In this document: piece by piece, positions 20,750-30,286 of the stretch
Layout of the letters: the number at the start of each line of letters is the position of its first letter
How positions within the stretch are numbered: position 1 is the stretch's first letter
Assembly (NCBI GenBank): GCA_965207885.1
Contig: OZ242311.1
Span: 5,600,001 to 5,664,000, forward strand
Source of the DNA: Candidatus Latescibacterota bacterium
Lineage (GTDB): Bacteria > Latescibacterota > UBA2968
DNA: 64,000 nucleotides
Direction: 5' to 3'
Position numbers and translations under genes: made by a program
The notes under the pieces: generated by a model
The model's database searches: none
Told to the model about the DNA's origin: nothing
Seen by the model: the letters and a program-made list of their open reading frames with translations, nothing else

Positions 20750-22225
20750 ATGCCACTTCTCTCATCCATACTTCTCACGCCCGTCATCACGCTCATCATC
20801 CTTTTACTCATGCCCCAAAGGGCCGTGCGGGGTATCCGGCTAATATGCGCCTTCAGTGGCTTATTGACCTGTGTGTTGAGCCTGCAACTCTGGATGAGCT
20901 ATGATCCCACAACCAGCGGTATTCAATTTGAAGAAATAATCCCCTGGGTCGCAGCCATTGGCATCTCCTATCACCTCGGCGTTGACGGATTTGGCGTCAT
21001 CCTCGTCATGCTCAACGCCATCGTCTATTTCACCGGGGTACTCACCATGTGGGACCTCGAAGAGCGCGTCAAAGAATATTTCGCCTTCATGGTACTCCTC
21101 GTCATCGGCGTCTTCGGCGTCTTCATGTCGCTGGATCTCTTCTTCTTTTTCTTCTTTTACGAAATCGCTGTCGTCCCCATGTATCCCCTCATCCTGATAT
21201 GGGGCAGCGGCAACAGAGCTTATGCCGGCATGAAACTCATGCTCTTCCTCCTCGCCGGCAGCGCGCTCCTCTTTCCCGGCCTACTCGCCATCTATCACCA
21301 CGCGGGCCTCAACACCTTTGACATCATTGCCCTGTCCGCACACACATTCGATCCCCAATTCCAAATATTTGTCTATCCCTTTATCTACGTCGGCTTTGGC
21401 GTCTTGGCCGGCCTGTTCCCCTTCCACGGCTGGTCGCCCACAGGCCACGTTGCCGCGCCATCTGCTGTTTCCATGCTACACGCGGGCGTCCTGATGAAAC
21501 TCGGCGCATTTGGCATACTCACAGTCGGCATTCGCCTGCTACCCGAAGGCGCTGCGTACTGGGCACCGACCTTTGTGGTATTGGCCGTCATCGGAATCAT
21601 CTACGGAGCTTATGTCGCCATGCGACAGACCGACTTCAAATTTGTCATCGGCTTCTCATCTGTATCTCACATGGGCATTGTCCTCCTCGGCCTCAACCTC
21701 GCAATCCTCGGCCAGGTCGCTGCAACCGACGCCCTCAACGGCGCAGTCTTCCAGATGTTTGCCCACGGCATCATGACCGCCCTGTTTTTCAGCACCGCGG
21801 GATATATCTACGACAAATCCCACTCAAAAACCATTGGCGACTTTGGCGGTCTTGGCGTGCAGATGCCCCGCGCAGTCTCCATCTTCATCGTCGCGGGCCT
21901 GTGTGGTGCCGGTTTGCCCGGCCTGGCGAGCTTTTGGGCTGAATTACTCGTCTTCCTCGCCGCTTTGAAAACGTACCCCATCGCCGGCGTCATCGTCATC
22001 CTCGGTCTCGTACTCACCGCGGTTTACATCTTGCGCGTCTTCAACCTGGCCTTTTTTGGCGCACCAAATCCGAAATGGGAAAATCTGAAAGCACAGGACA
22101 TGTCTGGCCTGCACCTGATACCGCGCGCCATACTAATCGCCGTACTCGTGATCTTCGGCTTTGTACCCCGCCTCATGCTCGACCTGATCAACAGCACGAC
22201 CATAGCTTTCTTGGGTAATTTCTAA
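20750..22225 (+). CDS. nuoM: NADH-quinone oxidoreductase subunit M
   Basis: 'FYE...VPMY', 'PFHGW.P..HV.AP', 'LMKLG', 'SSVSHMG', 'MFAHG'. Confidence 0.93.
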   Translation: MPLLSSILLTPVITLIILLLMPQRAVRGIRLICAFSGLLTCVLSLQLWMSYDPTTSGIQFEEIIPWVAAIGISYHLGVDGFGVILVMLNAIVYFTGVLTMWDLEERVKEYFAFMVLLVIGVFGVFMSLDLFFFFFFYEIAVVPMYPLILIWGSGNRAYAGMKLMLFLLAGSALLFPGLLAIYHHAGLNTFDIIALSAHTFDPQFQIFVYPFIYVGFGVLAGLFPFHGWSPTGHVAAPSAVSMLHAGVLMKLGAFGILTVGIRLLPEGAAYWAPTFVVLAVIGIIYGAYVAMRQTDFKFVIGFSSVSHMGIVLLGLNLAILGQVAATDALNGAVFQMFAHGIMTALFFSTAGYIYDKSHSKTIGDFGGLGVQMPRAVSIFIVAGLCGAGLPGLASFWAELLVFLAALKTYPIAGVIVILGLVLTAVYILRVFNLAFFGAPNPKWENLKAQDMSGLHLIPRAILIAVLVIFGFVPRLMLDLINSTTIAFLGNF

Positions 22226-22226
22226 C

Positions 22227-23651
22227 ATGGAAAACGCTATCCTCTTCGCACCAGAACTTATTTGCCTGCTCATGGGCCTCGTGCTCTTTTTTGCCACAGT
22301 GCTCAACTGGTCCTATCGCACAACTCGGGGCATTGCCATTGCATCCGGCATAGCGATGATCGCCGCCTGTCTCTGGACCCTATCCCTTGAAGGCGAACCC
22401 TTCTTCCCGGGCATATACGCGGTTGACTTCTTTTCCCAATTGATCAAAACAGCTCTCGCAGTCGGATTCCTATTTGTCGTCATTGCCAGCGCCAACCCCC
22501 TCACAGTTGACCGCAATGGTTGGCTCGAGGTCCCCCTCTTCTTCATATTTTCCACACTCGGCATGATGATGATGGTCAGCGCGACCGAACTCCTCACCCT
22601 CTATGTCGCCATGGAACTGGCTGCCTATCCCGTCTATATCGTCGTTGCCCTTCACCGCAATACCGACATCGGCGGGGAAAGCGCCACCAAATACATGGTA
22701 CAGGGCATGGCAGCCTCGGCCATCTCGCTCTACGGCATGAGCTTTCTCTTTGGCACATTTGGCTCCACCTACTTCTCTGCCATCAGCATCCCACACGCCG
22801 CCGCGCAGCCCATCTTCTACCTGGGCCTGTTGCTCACACTCGCCGGCTTCTTCTTCAAACTCGGCGCCTTCCCCTTCCACTTTTGGGCACCCGACACGTA
22901 TGAAATCGCGCCCCATCCCATCATCACATTCATCGCCACCGTTTCCAAAATCGCCGCCATCGGCATCCTCTGTCGCCTGTTATCCCTCGCCATGCCCGGT
23001 GGCTGGGAATCGGGCCACGCCCAAACCGCGCTCATGTGGGCAAGCGTCATCGCAATGAGCCTGGGCAACCTGGCCGCACTCGCGCAAAAAGACCTCAAAC
23101 GCCTGCTCGGATATTCCACAGTCGCCCACGCCGGTTACGTGCTCCTCGCCCTTCAAACCTTCGCCGAATGGGGTCTTACCGCTGCCCTCTTTTACGCCAT
23201 TGGCTACTTTGCCATGTCCTTTGCGTGCTTCCTCGTCATCTGTGAAGTCGGTCGCAGCGAAGACCGCATCACCATCGACTCCGTATCTGGCCTTTACAAA
23301 CGCGCGCCATTCCTCTCCTTCACCTTGCTCATCGGCCTGTTTGGCCTCATTGGCCTCCCCCCCACTGTGGGCTTTGTCGGCAAATGGTTCCTCTTTTCTG
23401 CCGCCCTCCAGCGCGGTCAATTCTATCTCGTCCTCATCGCAGCCATCAACGCCGCGATCGCCCTGTATTATTATCTTCTCATCATTCGCCAACTCTACTG
23501 GGTAGAACCCACCACACAGAACACCATCAAACCCACGCCCCTCATCGCCGTCACCGCAATGGCGACCATCATCCTCGTAGTCGCAATGGGCACGGTCCCC
23601 GGACCCTTCTGGGACATGGCCGCACGCGCCGCACGCGCACTGATCAGTTGA
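22227..23651 (+). CDS. nuoN: NADH-quinone oxidoreductase subunit N
   Basis: 'E.A.KY', 'FKLGAFPFHFWAPD.YE', 'KRLLGYS..AHAGY', 'GLPP..GF.GK'. Confidence 0.93.
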   Translation: MENAILFAPELICLLMGLVLFFATVLNWSYRTTRGIAIASGIAMIAACLWTLSLEGEPFFPGIYAVDFFSQLIKTALAVGFLFVVIASANPLTVDRNGWLEVPLFFIFSTLGMMMMVSATELLTLYVAMELAAYPVYIVVALHRNTDIGGESATKYMVQGMAASAISLYGMSFLFGTFGSTYFSAISIPHAAAQPIFYLGLLLTLAGFFFKLGAFPFHFWAPDTYEIAPHPIITFIATVSKIAAIGILCRLLSLAMPGGWESGHAQTALMWASVIAMSLGNLAALAQKDLKRLLGYSTVAHAGYVLLALQTFAEWGLTAALFYAIGYFAMSFACFLVICEVGRSEDRITIDSVSGLYKRAPFLSFTLLIGLFGLIGLPPTVGFVGKWFLFSAALQRGQFYLVLIAAINAAIALYYYLLIIRQLYWVEPTTQNTIKPTPLIAVTAMATIILVVAMGTVPGPFWDMAARAARALIS

Positions 23652-24931: not shown

Positions 24932-25858
24932 ATGCTCAATAAATTAATCGACAAACTAAAAAAGGGACTGACCAAAACCCGCGAAGGCATGGTACAAAAA
25001 ATCCGCGAAGTCATTCGGCGGCACCCTAAAATCGACGAAGAAACCCTTGAAGAAATTGAAGAAATTCTCATCGAAGCAGACGTTGGCGTAGAACCCACCC
25101 TTCGCATAATTGACCAATTGCGCGAACGCTTTGAAACCGGCGAACCCGTTGAAAATCCGGAAACCGCAGTCCAGGAATTTCTCGAAGAAGAAATCCGCAA
25201 AATCCTCCTGCCTTCAGACACGGCGCCATCTATCGCAATCACAACCAAACCCCACATTATCCTCGTCGTAGGTGTCAACGGCGTGGGCAAAACCACCACC
25301 ATTGGCAAAATGGCTCACAAACTCAGCCGCGAAGGCAAAAAAGTACTCTTTGCCGCGGGAGACACATTTCGGGCAGCAGCCATTGACCAACTCGGCATCT
25401 GGGCCAACCGCACGGGATCTGACATCGTGCAACACCAACCGGGCGCAGACGCAGCATCCGTGGCATTCGACGCCATTCAGGCAGCCAGAGCACGCGACAT
25501 CGACGTCGTACTCATCGACACAGCAGGCCGCCTGCACACCAAAATCAACCTCATGGAAGAAGTCAAAAAAATCCGCCGCGTCGTCGCCAAAGCCATGCCC
25601 GGTGCCCCCCACGAAACCCTGCTCGTACTCGATGCAACCACCGGACAAAACGCCGTCATACAGGCAAAACAATTTCACAGCACCGTTGAACTCACGGGCC
25701 TTGTCCTGGCAAAACTCGACGGCACCGCCAAAGGAGGCGTAATCATCGCCATCGCCGATGAACTCGACCTCCCCGTGCGCTATGTTGGCCTGGGAGAAGA
25801 CATTGAGGACCTGGATGACTTTGACCCCGCAACCTTTGTCCAGGCTCTATTTGAGTAA
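24932..25858 (+). CDS. ftsY: SRP receptor GTPase FtsY
   Basis: '[13 protein letters not shown]', 'DTFRAAA', 'DTAGR', 'KLDGTAKGG'. Confidence 0.97.
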
Positions 25859-25892
25859 TTGACGCCAATGCGAAATCGGGTATATTTTTTTT

Positions 25893-27053
25893 ATGTCCAT
25901 TCAACTGCCCATATATCTCGACAACAACGCCACCACACCCATAGATGAACGGGTACTCAACGCGATGTTGCCCTATCTCAAAGATCGCTTTGGCAATGCC
26001 GCCAGTCGCACACACACCTTTGGGTGGCATGCCGAAGATGCCGTTGATCTCGCGCGGGAACAAATAGCCAGCCTCATCAACGCACAGCCCAAAGACATCG
26101 TCTTTACCAGTGGCGCCACAGAATCCGACAACCTCGCCATCAAAGGCGTGGTCGCCGCAGCCAAAACTCCGCACATCATCACACAAGCCACCGAACACCA
26201 CGCCGTACTCGACTCTTGCCGCGCCCTGGAACGCGACGGCGTCTCAGTCACGGTATTGCCCGTAGATTCACACGGTATTACCGACCCATCAGACATCGCA
26301 AACGCCATCACAGACAAAACCGCACTCGTCTCCATCATGGCGGCCAACAACGAAATCGGCACCTGCCAGGCCATTGAAGAAATCGGGGCAATATGCCGTG
26401 AAAAAAACATCTATTTTCACACAGATGCAGCACAGGCCATTGGCAAGTACCCGATCGACGTCGAAGCCATGCATATCGACCTGCTCTCCATCTCCGCCCA
26501 TAAACTCTACGGACCCAAAGGCGCGGGCGCACTCTATGTACGCAGCCGTCCGCGCGTTCGCCTCGTCGGCCAAATAGACGGCGGGGGCCATGAAAAAGGC
26601 ATGCGCTCTGGCACGCTCAATGTACCGGGCATTGTGGGCCTGGGAGAAGCCTGCGCGCTCGCACAAAAACACATCGAAACCGAAGCAAAACACAGCCAGA
26701 ATTTGCGCCATCGCCTGCAAAACCACCTCTTCAACGCGCTGCCCCAGATACAACTCAACGGCCACCCCGAACAACGCCTGCCGGGCAATCTCAACATCAG
26801 CTTTACCGGTGTAGATGGTGAAAGCCTGCTCATGAGCTTGCGGGATGTAGCCCTCTCATCTGGTTCAGCCTGTACATCCGCATCTCTGGAACCATCCTAC
26901 GTACTCAAAGCCATTGGTGTCAGCAATGACATGGCACAGTGCAGCATACGCTTTGGCATTGGCCGATTCAACACCGAAGCAGAAATTGATTATGTTGCAG
27001 AACGCGTGATTAAAGAAGTCAATCGCCTGCGCGAAATATCGCCAAACTACTAA
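25893..27053 (+). CDS. iscS: Cysteine desulfurase (IscS type)
   Basis: 'YLDNNATTP', '[10 protein letters not shown]', 'SSGSACTS'. Confidence 0.95.
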
Positions 27054-27070: not shown

Positions 27071-27880
27071 ATGCCAACACCAGACCGACCCCAACGCCCC
27101 GAAATCTTACCCGAAGTCAAAAACATCGTCGCAGTATCCAGCGGCAAAGGCGGCGTGGGCAAAACAACAGTTAGCGTGAACCTCGCGGTCTCACTCGCCA
27201 AACAGGGCGCAGCGGTTGGCTTGCTCGACGCGGATATTTACGGACCCAATGTGCCCATCATGATGGGCAGCACGGCGCAACCCAGGGCAATGGGTCAAAA
27301 AATACTGCCCCTTGAAAATCACAATGTCAAATTCATGTCTCTCGGCCTTATCGCCGGAGAAAATGCCCCCATAATATGGCGCGGTCCCATCGTGGGCAGA
27401 ATGATACAGCAATTCATAGTTGACGTGATATGGGGCGCACTCGACTACCTCGTCGTCGATCTTCCCCCCGGCACGGGCGACGCACAACTCACCCTTGCCC
27501 AAACCGTGCCCCTCAGCGGTGCGGTCATAGTCACCACCCCGCAAAATGTCGCATTGGAAGACGTACATCGCGGCATAGAAATGTTCCGCAAAGTCGAAGT
27601 CCCCATCCTCGGCATTGTCGAAAACATGAGCTATTTTCTCTGCCCGTGTTGCGGAGACCACACCCCCCTCTTTGGCGAAGGCGGAGGTCAACACATCGCC
27701 GATGCATTTGGCCTGCCCCTACTCGGACAAATCCCCATCCAGCCCAATATTTGCGAAGGCGGCGACACGGGTGCGCCCATTGCAACAGGTGAAAACAATG
27801 CTTTCCCCGAAATCGCCCGGCGCATTGCCAACGCACTGGAAGAAAGAGAAAGCGACCTGCCCGAAATCACAATTGTCTAA
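27071..27880 (+). CDS. mrp: Mrp/NBP35 (ApbC) Fe-S cluster carrier ATPase
   Basis: 'SGKGGVGKTT', 'DADIYGP', 'DLPPGTGD', 'ENMS...CPCC'. Confidence 0.93.
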   Translation: MPTPDRPQRPEILPEVKNIVAVSSGKGGVGKTTVSVNLAVSLAKQGAAVGLLDADIYGPNVPIMMGSTAQPRAMGQKILPLENHNVKFMSLGLIAGENAPIIWRGPIVGRMIQQFIVDVIWGALDYLVVDLPPGTGDAQLTLAQTVPLSGAVIVTTPQNVALEDVHRGIEMFRKVEVPILGIVENMSYFLCPCCGDHTPLFGEGGGQHIADAFGLPLLGQIPIQPNICEGGDTGAPIATGENNAFPEIARRIANALEERESDLPEITIV

Positions 27881-27966
27881 CTTTTCGGGCTTGCGAATGA
27901 AAAAAAATACCTTACATTAAATTCCCGTGATCACTCAAATCCAAACACCAACCCGAAAGGTGTGCC

Positions 27967-29145
27967 ATGAGTACAACGTATGAAACGCTCGTCGCACAGG
28001 CAGAGGCCAACAACACAGGGCTTTCTCCAGAACGCGCACAGGAGAAAATCAACGCAAATGGAACGCTGCTCATAGACGTGCGCGAGCGCGAAAATTATAT
28101 CGAAGGATATATCCCCGGCGCAGAAAACGTACCGCGTGGCTTTCTCGAACTCCGCATAGAAAGCATGGACAATGACCGCGACCGCGCAATCATTGTCTAT
28201 GGTGCTCAGGGCCAGGGCGCATTGGCCGCACAGGCACTTCAAGACATGGGCTATTCCGACGTCGCGTATATCCAGGGCGACATTGACGCGTGGCAAAATG
28301 CCGATCTCCACATTGACCGCGACCGCGCGCTCAACAAAGCCGAAGTACAGCGCTACTCCCGTCACCTCCTCATCCCCGAAGTGGGAGAACGCGGACAGGG
28401 CAAACTCCTCGACGCCAAAGTGCTACTCATTGGCGCAGGCGGATTGGGCAGCCCAACCGGACTTTATCTGGCCGCGACTGGCATTGGGACACTGGGAATC
28501 GTCGATGCCGACATCGTCGATGTCACCAACTTGCAACGCCAGATACTGCACGGCACATCTGACCTGGGTCGTCTCAAAGCCATCTCGGCTTACGAGACCC
28601 TCAAAGAAATCAATCCCGGCTGCGATGTGGTGCCACACACCGACTATCTCACATCCGACAACATCATGGACATCCTTCCCCAATACGACATCATCGTCAA
28701 CGGATGCGACAACTTCCCAACGCGCTATCTCGTCAACGATGCGTGTGTCTTCTTAAAAAAACCCATCGTGGATGGCAGCATCTTCCGCTTTGAAGGTCAG
28801 GTCACGGTGTACACGTGCGACGGTGAGGGGCCTTGCTACCGCTGCCTCTACCCTGCGCCACCGCCGGCAGACCTGGCACCGTCGTGAGACGAAGCAGGCG
28901 TGCTGGGTGTTCTGCCCGGCACAGTTGGCCTCGTGCAGGCTACAGAAGTTGTCAAACTCATACTCGGTCAGGGGGATCCACTCATCGGCCGCTTGCTGAT
29001 GTACGACGCCCTGCAAATGAACTTCAACACATTTAAAATTCGCCGCGACAAAAATTGCCCTGTATGTGGCGACAACCCGACCATCACCGAACTCATGGAC
29101 TATCAGGCATTCTGCTCCATGGATCACAGCGACGCGGCGGATTGA
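27967..29145 (+). CDS. moeB: Rhodanese-MoeB/ThiF E1-like adenylyltransferase, probable selenoprotein (Sec at TGA 28885-28887)
   Basis: N-terminal rhodanese fold; 'RYSRH', 'GAGGLGS', 'NLQRQ', 'CYRC'; in-frame read-through gives 'APS-U-DEAGVLGVLPG' where homologs have 'PSC.EAGVLG'; second Zn motif 'CPVC' lies after the TGA. Confidence 0.85.
28900..28922 (+). promoter_or_regulatory. Bacterial SECIS-like hairpin
   Basis: Stem GTGCTGGGT/GCCCGGCAC (9 bp including 2 G-U); apical loop GTTCT begins with G(U), 21 nt after the UGA. Confidence 0.7.
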
Positions 29146-29165
29146 CCGTCGCAACACAAAAACAC

Positions 29166-29205
29166 AAAGGGGTGAAACCGATTGGTTTCACCCCTTTTAT
29201 TTTTT
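29166..29205. terminator. Intrinsic terminator (probably bidirectional)
   Basis: AAAGGGGTGAAACC-gatt-GGTTTCACCCCTTTT followed by a T-rich tract. Confidence 0.88.
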
Positions 29206-29218
29206 CCTTTTTGTGCAT

Positions 29219-30286
29219 TCACCTCTGATAATGCCCCCTATCTCTATCCTCCACCACACTATCATCTACAGGCACTTTGAGGCGATCTGCCCATTCGCCA
29301 ATTTGCTCGTTAATCGTACCGGGTATCTCAATACCATGTTTGAGGCGGTGCTTGCGGTTGCGGTACTCAAAATCCCCCGGAACCAGAACTTCATCTACCC
29401 CATCGGCGGGTTCGGTCGTCTTCATCGCATCTAAAAATGCGCGAATATCCTGCTGATAACTGTCCAAATCTGTAAACGCGCTAATATCGATAACCTGCAT
29501 AAACGCGCCTCCAGAACGCCGGCCCTCCCTTTGGGCTCCTGAAAGCAGCCCCATCAAACAGACCATCAGCGAAAGCGCGTAGCCCTTGTGCTCTCCAAAA
29601 GTACGCAAAAATCCACCATCGTAAAAATCGAGGGGATTGGTTGACGGCTTGTTATTCTTATCCACAATAAAAGTATCGGGAATCGACGCATTCTTGCTTC
29701 GCGCGACCTGGAGCTTGCCCTCGGCGACCATAGAAGTGGCAAAATCGATTACAAAAGGTGCCTCATCGCCCGTGGGAACGCCCACCGCAATGGGATTGGT
29801 ACCCAGACTCCCTTTCTTCCCCCCAAAAGGCAAAACTTTCATCGTATTGGGCGAACCCCCACCAACCATGCAAATACCGATAAAACCCCCGCGCGCGGCA
29901 ATCTCGACATATTCTCCCAGACGCCCAATATGGGCAACCCGCGTGAACGAAACCGAACAAATTTCAGAAGTTCGCGCTTTTTCCATCGCCTGATGGACAG
30001 CGCGATAAGCCGTAAGATGCCCCACCCCCCCGTTGCCGTCCAGAACCAGTGTAGTAGCCGATTCCCGCACCGTAGTCGGTTCAGCCGCCGGATTCATACC
30101 CCCATCAGAGATATGAGAGAGATACATGGGAATACGGAGAACACCGTGAGAATCGTGACCGGCGAGATTGGCATTCACCAGAATCTTCGCCACAATACAT
30201 GCGATATCAGGTGTCGCACCAGATGCTTCGAACAAACATCTCGTAAGCGCGTGAAGATGCGCGGGTTGATACGTGTGCATTTGCAT
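29219..30286 (-). CDS. Ldh_2 family (malate/L-sulfolactate/ureidoglycolate dehydrogenase-like) oxidoreductase
   Basis: 'GHDSHGV.R', 'HIGRLG.Y', 'LGTNPI', 'DFATS', 'FG.HKGYAL'; ATG 30286 follows AGGAG. Confidence 0.88.
   Translation of the reverse strand: MQMHTYQPAHLHALTRCLFEASGATPDIACIVAKILVNANLAGHDSHGVLRIPMYLSHISDGGMNPAAEPTTVRESATTLVLDGNGGVGHLTAYRAVHQAMEKARTSEICSVSFTRVAHIGRLGEYVEIAARGGFIGICMVGGGSPNTMKVLPFGGKKGSLGTNPIAVGVPTGDEAPFVIDFATSMVAEGKLQVARSKNASIPDTFIVDKNNKPSTNPLDFYDGGFLRTFGEHKGYALSLMVCLMGLLSGAQREGRRSGGAFMQVIDISAFTDLDSYQQDIRAFLDAMKTTEPADGVDEVLVPGDFEYRNRKHRLKHGIEIPGTINEQIGEWADRLKVPVDDSVVEDRDRGHYQR

Follow-up and report, generated by a model that had tools for sequence, protein, structure and literature searches.

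A 'molybdopterin biosynthesis MoeB protein' containing selenocysteine (Sec) was reported in 2005 as a new selenoprotein family, from 11 sequences of the Sargasso Sea (Zhang, Fomenko and Gladyshev; PMC1088965). The Global Ocean Sampling (GOS) survey of 2008 counted 19 Sec against 2,262 Cys forms of MoeB, in a family keyed to pfam05237 (PMC2398784), and reviews of 2022 and 2026 list Sec-MoeB among the predicted families (PMC9312934, PMC13188914). In the available text of these reports, the published members are COG0476/PF00899 proteins with an in-frame TGA, widespread Cys homologues and a downstream stem-loop, predicted by computation only. Here we describe a gene at 27967-29145 of a 64,000-nucleotide stretch of a Candidatus Latescibacterota bacterium (contig OZ242311.1, positions 5,600,001 to 5,664,000; the whole stretch is called the window, and unprefixed positions refer to it) that shares all these features and is a further member of the family computationally predicted since 2005. 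The gene very probably encodes a selenoprotein, a 392-residue E1-like enzyme whose UGA at 28885-28887 would be decoded by SelB and tRNA-Sec under the direction of a hairpin. Whereas the published sets, as far as their accessible text goes, stem from ocean surveys, this member belongs to a Latescibacterota genome and carries a rhodanese domain devoid of Cys. An earlier note on this DNA, made from the sequence alone, had mentioned both the computational prediction of Sec-MoeB and the lack of any known biochemical characterisation; the reports cited above bear out the first, and a full-text literature search for selenocysteine with MoeB, ThiF or MoeZ, which turned up no experimental work on an enzyme of this kind, agrees with the second. 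MoeB, ThiF and Latescibacteria do not occur in the main text of the BSepDB and deep-Sep papers, and of the papers listed by a search for Latescibacteria with selenocysteine, none by its title concerns this protein. What is new here is that Sec is pinned to the position of Uba4 Cys202 and ThiF Cys184, that the enzyme appears to be the sole E1 for four carriers, and that the rhodanese Cys has been lost in the lineage.

The genome containing the window is a single contig of 6.23 Mb. With the internal stop read through, the frame runs on the plus strand from an ATG at 27967 to a TGA at 29143-29145, 392 codons in all, and its one internal stop is the TGA at 28885-28887 (codon 307), in the context ...PPADLAPS-[TGA]-DEAGVLGVLPG. 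The list of open reading frames (ORFs) under translation table 11 splits the gene into 27967..28887 (306 residues) and 28900..29145 (81 residues, GTG start), and automated annotation truncates it at the UGA. The reading of the earlier note, that both ORFs lie in one frame interrupted only by a TGA at 28885 within APS-[TGA]-DEAGVLGVLPG, and that a second zinc-binding CPVC lies beyond it, agrees exactly with the sequence and the ORF list. The features of the gene, all on the plus strand, are:

27967..29145 (+), complete gene of a rhodanese-ThiF/MoeB E1-like enzyme, 392 residues, with predicted Sec at residue 307
28024..28302 (+), N-terminal rhodanese-homology domain without cysteine (Pfam Rhodanese, residues 20-112, E 4.6e-18)
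28201..28221 (+), degenerate rhodanese active-site loop, G79-AQGQGA (CxxGxRS in relatives)
28354..29064 (+), ThiF/MoeB adenylation domain (Pfam ThiF, residues 130-366, E 4.8e-81)
28834..28845 (+), first zinc motif, C290-Y-R-C293, upstream of the UGA and aligned with CYRC of E. coli MoeB and ThiF
28885..28887 (+), UGA codon 307, predicted to be read as Sec; the TGA/TGC column in orthologues and the crossover-loop Cys in structures
28889..28934 (+), predicted Sec insertion sequence (SECIS) element, an apical hairpin with an interrupted lower stem, from folding, the criteria of the SECIS model and comparison of wobble pairs
29056..29067 (+), second zinc motif, C364-P-V-C367, downstream of the UGA and aligned with E. 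coli MoeB and ThiF

The domain make-up is clear. PF00899 (ThiF) scores 271.9 bits against a cut-off of 28.1, and NCBIfam NF006444 scores 512 bits against 449, with residues 6-385 spanning positions 4-385 of the 387 in the profile. The protein has the glycine-rich motif and both CxxC zinc motifs expected of a ThiF/MoeB E1-like adenylyltransferase: the nucleotide-binding GAGGLG occupies residues 156-161, with G156, G158, G159 and G161 invariant in a 44-sequence alignment, C290 and C293 are invariant in 44/44 of the same sequences, and C364 and C367 are each conserved in at least 90% of them. The previous label of a MoeB/ThiF-like E1 is right as to the ThiF/MoeB domain but does not hold in the sense of a plain MoeB, given the N-terminal rhodanese domain and the NF006444 architecture. 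The C-terminal tail after FCSMDH is variable, and three orthologues (L033 in G017, L037 in G018 and L038 in G011) end two to three codons earlier. All three stop codons serve as the terminal codon, TAA in most orthologue genomes, TAG in G017, and TGA in the window gene and a small number of others. A scan of the window for other frames joined by TGA gave 60 candidates, mostly in non-coding frames.

Residue 307 falls at a well-defined site of the E1 fold, the Cys of the crossover loop. When aligned to solved structures it coincides with Cys187 in MoeB (1jw9) and Cys184 in ThiF (1zud), both from E. coli, and with Cys202 in Chaetomium Uba4 (6yub); the Lys of the C202K trapping mutant (6yuc) stands in the same column. 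Uba4 Cys202, in the crossover loop, is described as forming a thioester with Urm1 (PMC7527816), and ThiF Cys184 as forming an acyl-disulfide with ThiS (PMC12596934). An AlphaFold2 model built from the 44-sequence alignment, which we used for fold confidence and loop flexibility only, has a mean predicted local distance difference test score (pLDDT) of 88.8 and a predicted template modelling score of 0.80. Its one internal stretch of low confidence is residues 301-310 (mean pLDDT 56), predicted to lie between the CxxC helix 291-294 and helix 315-333. This matches Uba4, whose crossover loop is described as disordered in the apo form (PMC7527816).

We predict with great confidence that Sec is inserted at codon 307. 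The earlier note had hung this proposal on three things, a complete Sec machinery, alternation of TGA and TGC among relatives, and the absence of TGC or TGT from reads, and each came out in its favour. The genome encodes tRNA-Sec (70.1 bits; called tRNA-SeC(tca) by ARAGORN), SelA (492 bits) with a 647-residue SelB frame adjoining, and SelD (369 bits), so that selA, selB, selC and selD are all present. The selD gene, beside that for tRNA-Sec, has an in-frame TGA of its own; it lies about 35 kb past the end of the window (G000:C1:5699077-5700198; L001, L016) and encodes a selenophosphate synthetase of the Sec type. A search of 41 related genomes gave 40 full-length orthologues, the match in G007 being a 49-residue fragment at a contig end. 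The aligned codon is TGA in 21 (20 from the genus itself, and one, 76% identical, from a sister genus) and TGC in 19, and the Cys forms read ...LAPSC[AN][ED]AGVLGVLPG, as the note's PSC.EAGVLG had anticipated; in another 62 genome homologues this column holds TGC or TGT. Nor does the TGA reflect faulty sequencing. The same codon is present in 20 genomes of the genus and in four of two sister genera, and among contigs from four public runs compared at the locus, those of three bridge the TGA (one RNA library and two DNA runs from other studies) and are unchanged at 28885-28887. A contig of RNA library X15 (28867-29143) was left out of this count because it holds only 18 letters upstream of the TGA. 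No differences were found in the four runs between 28866 and 28941.

The frame beyond the TGA is under selection as coding sequence. Over the 85 codons that follow the TGA, the 20 sequences of the genus differ at the first codon position in 13 codons, at the second in 6 and at the third in 53; 41 of the 85 change synonymously only and 14 change the residue. Over the 306 codons before the TGA the corresponding values are 66, 31 and 221, with 173 synonymous-only and 67 residue-changing codons. Because the variation has the same pattern on both sides, the tail must be translated.

This bears directly on the possibility that the TGA is a true stop, leaving either a pseudogene or a 306-residue protein without the crossover-loop residue, the dimer helix and the second CxxC. 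Table 11 does yield two ORFs, and standard gene callers would truncate the gene just so, but a stop is hard to reconcile with the purifying pattern of the 85 downstream codons, with a TGA kept in 24 genomes of three genera, with a complete Sec machinery accompanied by a SECIS-type hairpin, and with the presence of ThiS/ThiG, MoaD/MoaE and CysO/CysM in a genome whose only ThiF-family gene this is; we consider a stop very improbable. The split enzyme, two polypeptides encoded by 27967-28887 and by the 81-residue ORF that starts in the same frame at GTG 28900, is the least probable reading of all, since that GTG lies inside the 5' arm of the hairpin and encodes the conserved Val of GVLG in the Cys forms too, the split would delete the conserved x-EAG residues together with the reactive residue, and 19/19 Cys-form relatives are continuous.

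The hairpin downstream of the UGA has the geometry of a bacterial SECIS element. Its 5' arm (28900-28908) and 3' arm (28914-28922) form nine base pairs, two of them G-U, around the loop GUUCU (28909-28913), with an energy of -16.4 kcal/mol for the 30-nucleotide stretch; counted from the U of the UGA, bases 16-24 pair with 30-38 and the loop is 25-29. Below it, 28889-28899 and 28924-28934 form an interrupted lower stem. The published model asks for a loop of 3-9 nucleotides, an upper stem of 4-16 base pairs, a G within the first two positions of the loop, a distance of 16-37 nucleotides from UGA to loop and a minimum free energy of -7.5 kcal/mol or lower (PMC13188914, legend to Fig. 2). With a five-nucleotide loop that has G at its first position, nine base pairs, a spacing of 21 nucleotides and -16.4 kcal/mol, the hairpin agrees with the model in every respect, as the note had maintained. 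Its further statement that a 9-bp stem with a GU-starting loop sits 21 nucleotides after the UGA is correct for the hairpin and its loop; the stem itself begins 12 nucleotides after.

Selection on the hairpin can be seen apart from selection on the protein. The conserved codons of GVLGVLPGT fix six of the nine pairs, so a fair test is provided by the pairs that join two third codon positions, 18-36 and 21-33. Both are complementary in 16/18 unique Latescibacterota Sec sequences and in 0/23 Cys sequences of families f1 and f2; among Cys sequences of more distant families both are complementary in 3/13. Such a difference at sites free to vary is expected of a SECIS element under selection, though the sequences are related. 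The closing pair 24-30 occurs as U-G, U-A and C-G, and the energy of the hairpin lies between -14.4 and -18.7 kcal/mol for the 21 Sec forms, and between -3.3 and -16.4 kcal/mol for the 19 Cys forms.

Several observations weigh against a Sec enzyme, or limit the evidence for it. The case is made from nucleotide sequence, and contigs from RNA libraries are no proof of transcription, let alone of translation. Sec and Cys forms are structured by clade, so their counts are not counts of independent events. The 76-nucleotide fold after the UGA is no more stable than shuffled sequences (z = -1.2; of 200 shuffles, 24 are as stable or more so). With six of the nine apical pairs forced by the protein, Cys forms keep part of the hairpin, down to -16.4 kcal/mol. 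In the same register, 85 unique Sec and 97 unique Cys sequences average -12.6 and -11.7 kcal/mol, a difference (Mann-Whitney p = 0.026, on non-independent sequences) that we do not take as support; the other Sec clades, those from metagenomes, may use another hairpin register. An Rfam scan of 28700-29250 (E <= 10) gave no match on the hairpin and weak matches on the terminator only, which is uninformative; Rfam is not known to hold a general bacterial SECIS model. Finally, Cys187 of E. coli MoeB is reportedly dispensable, so the role of the residue differs among family members. The earlier description of Sec at the catalytic Cys accordingly stands as to its alignment with the crossover-loop Cys of ThiF, MoeB and Uba4, and the word 'catalytic' is safe for Uba4 and ThiF.

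A further alternative is that read-through of the UGA inserts a residue other than Sec, either by a near-cognate tRNA inserting Trp, Cys or Arg, or with Cys inserted through the Sec machinery under selenium scarcity. Homologues do work with Cys at this site, and the present data do not tell which residue is inserted. Against this, synonymous-site selection for a correctly spaced SelB-type hairpin is seen in the TGA forms only, tRNA-Sec, SelA, SelB and SelD are all encoded, and the same gene also uses TGA as its terminal stop. SelA is moreover found in 40/41 relatives, a machinery old in the clade and available for a switch from Cys to Sec. We consider non-Sec read-through improbable.

For the selenoenzyme we propose the following course of events. 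SelB and tRNA-Sec would decode the UGA at 28885-28887 as Sec, directed by the hairpin 12 nucleotides downstream. The enzyme would adenylate the C-terminal Gly of several sulfur-carrier proteins and so enable their thiocarboxylation. The selenolate of Sec307 would take the role of the aligned Cys of Uba4 and ThiF and attack the carrier acyl-adenylate, and/or it would resolve the acyl-persulfide intermediate, freeing the thiocarboxylate through an easily reduced selenenyl-sulfide. By analogy with Uba4 and ThiF, we lean towards this part of the mechanism. Sulfane sulfur would be supplied in trans, by the co-located cysteine desulfurase IscS or by a stand-alone rhodanese with an intact Cys loop; that IscS itself acts directly as the source is conceivable, if somewhat doubtful.

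The number of carriers argues for a broad role. The genome has a single ThiF-family gene, that in the window, against four genes of the ThiS/MoaD family, together with moaE and thiG. One carrier (MoaD) is encoded beside moaE and one (ThiS) beside thiG. The third, of 94 residues and ending in ...AGGCSF, belongs to a cluster of cysM, a JAMM peptidase, the carrier, an Rrf2 gene and cysK, and the fourth, MoaD-like, of 90 residues and ending in ...IAGG, is encoded beside a molybdenum-hydroxylase subunit. One ThiF-family gene for four carriers indicates a shared activating enzyme and not a dedicated MoeB; that it adenylates the C-terminal Gly of several of them (ThiS, MoaD, the CysO-like and the MoaD-like carrier), as the only enzyme of its family, is highly probable from the gene content. 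The third cluster (L060, G000:C1:2430557-2433817), with cysM, a JAMM/desampylase-like peptidase, the 94-residue carrier, an Rrf2-type regulator and a second cysteine synthase, looks like a locus for carrier-dependent cysteine synthesis of the CysO type. Its layout is one that we take to be that of the mycobacterial CysO/CysM/Mec system. With the truncated annotation the organism seems to be without an enzyme for three sulfur activations, and the correct reading restores all three pathways: thiamin-thiazole, molybdopterin and CysO-type sulfur activation.

The fused rhodanese domain has lost its catalytic Cys throughout the order. Residues 1-218 contain no Cys, the first being C219, and the active-site loop reads VYGAQGQGA, with Gly (G79) in place of the catalytic Cys and the loop Arg lost too. 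The domain is nevertheless predicted to be well folded, with AlphaFold2 pLDDT of 86-96 in blocks after the first ten residues. (V/L)YG occupies the loop in 44/44 orthologues examined from f1 and f2, the two families that make up this order, Sec forms (21+3) and Cys forms (19+4) alike. YCxGGxRSA is kept in families f4, f8 and f13 and in 2/3 f3 genomes, and the rhodanese Cys in 62/62 homologues from outside the Latescibacterota, mostly Gaiellales and Thermoleophilia. Of the metagenomic Sec forms described below that reach the loop, 47/48 keep it, the 48th having an alignment gap there (80 of at least 120 matches were aligned). One of the three f3 genomes, G077, has VYGDNGIRSA, with Cys lost and Arg kept. 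Judged from these sequences, the Cys may have been lost more than once.

Because its own rhodanese domain has no Cys, sulfane sulfur must reach the enzyme in trans. The stand-alone rhodanese named above as a possible source is a protein of 157 residues with an intact VICAGGVRSL loop (G000:C1:5974869-5975339, minus strand; L287:167-640), which may be a paralogue that took over the chemistry of the dead domain. Full-length orthologues occur in 29/30 f1, 22/22 f2 and 3/3 f3 genomes, and in f4 the same threshold gives 10/76 hits, weaker and partial. This co-occurrence with the dead domain is at the level of clades and is weak evidence. In G048 the best match of the 157-residue rhodanese is the intact N-terminal domain of that genome's E1 (49% identity). 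A tandem-rhodanese sulfurtransferase is also encoded (L288; G000:C1:5310005-5310748, minus strand), in whose second domain a TGA takes the place of the catalytic Cys, VPY-U-QGGYRS. By its sequence it looks like the known 'rhodanese-related sulfurtransferase' type of selenoprotein (UxxG), and it would be a second Sec in the sulfur-transfer network of the genome. It is also conceivable, although we think it unlikely, that Sec307 is the sole chalcogen nucleophile that reaches the carrier C-terminus and that an enzyme-bound Se-S species, charged directly by IscS or by the rhodanese paralogue, thiocarboxylates all four carriers; thiamin, molybdopterin and CysO-dependent cysteine synthesis would then hinge on one Sec, making central sulfur-cofactor metabolism obligately selenium-dependent.

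A survey of the phylum covered 168 genomes, 140 of them with a homologue at E <= 1e-40. TGA at the Sec position was confined to three genera of one family, g1 (20 genomes), g9 (3/3) and g5 (1/1). A further genome, G104 of family f4, was flagged with one TGA; it has TGC in the Sec column, and the TGA is the terminal stop at the end of the match. SelA is found in 16/16 genomes of the Cys-form family f2, and presence of the machinery therefore does not explain the difference between Sec and Cys forms. Sec and Cys forms of sister genera, at 70-76% identity, make natural pairs.

A metagenome scan with the degenerate pattern P-[ST]-U-x-E-[AG]-G-V-L-G matched at least 120 stretches. The 80 loci compared, out of these, are all ThiF homologues (46-84% identity), and TGA occupies the Sec column in 79/79 contigs that cover it, the pattern itself containing TGA; the predicted Sec form thus recurs widely in metagenomes. 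In a quick maximum-likelihood tree (LG+G4, with Shimodaira-Hasegawa-like approximate likelihood-ratio support, SH-aLRT) of 108 of the 164 near-full-length sequences, which left out 14/20 rows of the genus and, of the 61 genome homologues belonging to other phyla, two thirds, the ten Latescibacterota Sec rows form one clade (support 95). It is nested in a larger clade of 33 rows (support 100), the remaining 23 of which are Cys forms. Sec forms from metagenomes group in other parts of the tree. The tree calls for at least three changes of state between Sec and Cys; this is a lower bound only, because the metagenomic rows were chosen by a TGA-containing pattern that leaves their Cys relatives unsampled. 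Public runs from 12 studies, labelled sponge metagenome, marine metagenome or sponge metatranscriptome, hold 0.60-1.00 of the words sampled from 27900-29200, which suggests a sponge-associated lineage. Such a lineage would use Sec at several points in its handling of sulfur and selenium, namely SelD, the tandem rhodanese and the E1 of the window.

The gene stands in the iscS-mrp-moeB sulfur-relay cluster that the earlier note had recognised, its neighbours proving to be an IscS-subfamily desulfurase and an Mrp/ApbC-type ATPase:

24932-25858 (+), ftsY, upstream of iscS
25893..27053 (+), iscS, cysteine desulfurase of the IscS subfamily and likely sulfur source (NF010611, 586.8 bits against a cut-off of 548)
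27071..27880 (+), mrp/apbC-type P-loop ATPase, Fe-S cluster carrier, between iscS and the E1 gene (PF10609, 330.8 bits)
29166..29197 (both strands), bidirectional intrinsic terminator that closes the E1 gene and a convergent Ldh_2 gene; 14-bp stem with T-runs on both strands

The ATPase falls under the NCBIfam equivalog cut-offs (MrpORP 299.8 against 450, ApbC 292.7 against 348), and a promoter-like site precedes iscS at 25859-25886. In all f1, f2 and f3 loci that extend far enough, iscS is found upstream of the E1 gene and on its strand; in 9/9 f4 loci examined it is directly beside that gene, and it is absent from the loci of other phyla; the synteny of iscS and E1 spans the whole class. Upstream of the cluster, at 20750-23651, are two adjacent Proton_antipo_M genes of NuoL/M/N or Mrp-antiporter type.

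For some twenty years Sec-MoeB has been listed as a predicted selenoprotein with no mechanism given, and the present case gives Sec a precise structural position. The published text, so far as it is accessible, states neither the position, nor the domains, nor a mechanism; from the 79 metagenome contigs, themselves selected by a TGA pattern, we tentatively infer that the published family has Sec at the same place. E. coli ThiF and MoeB (1zud, 1jw9) share the adenylation fold, both CxxC motifs and, in Cys184 and Cys187, the residue aligned with Sec307, and ThiF is described as receiving its sulfur in trans from IscS via other proteins (PMC12596934). They differ in having no rhodanese domain and one carrier each, whereas the window enzyme is the only member of its family in the genome and has four. 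In serving several carriers it presumably resembles TtuC of Thermus.

Uba4, MOCS3 and MoeZ likewise fuse a ThiF-type domain to a rhodanese domain, but theirs is C-terminal and bears a persulfide Cys (Cys397 in Uba4; PMC7527816), while that of the window protein is N-terminal and has none, and the MoeZ profile NF005902 gives 406.6 against a cut-off of 647. With its Sec/Cys pairs and a fused rhodanese that is unable to confuse the chemistry, this lineage offers a clean system in which to ask what selenium buys in an E1-like sulfur relay. The closest relatives by architecture are the proteins of NF006444 (PRK08762), the N-terminal-rhodanese form named 'molybdopterin-synthase adenylyltransferase MoeB', which the window protein matches over its full length. 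Homologues of this type in Latescibacterota families f3-f4 and in Actinomycetota (Gaiellales and Thermoleophilia) have the same architecture at 50-60% identity, but they retain the CxxGxRS loop and Cys at position 307, where the window protein has GAQGQGA and, as we predict, Sec.

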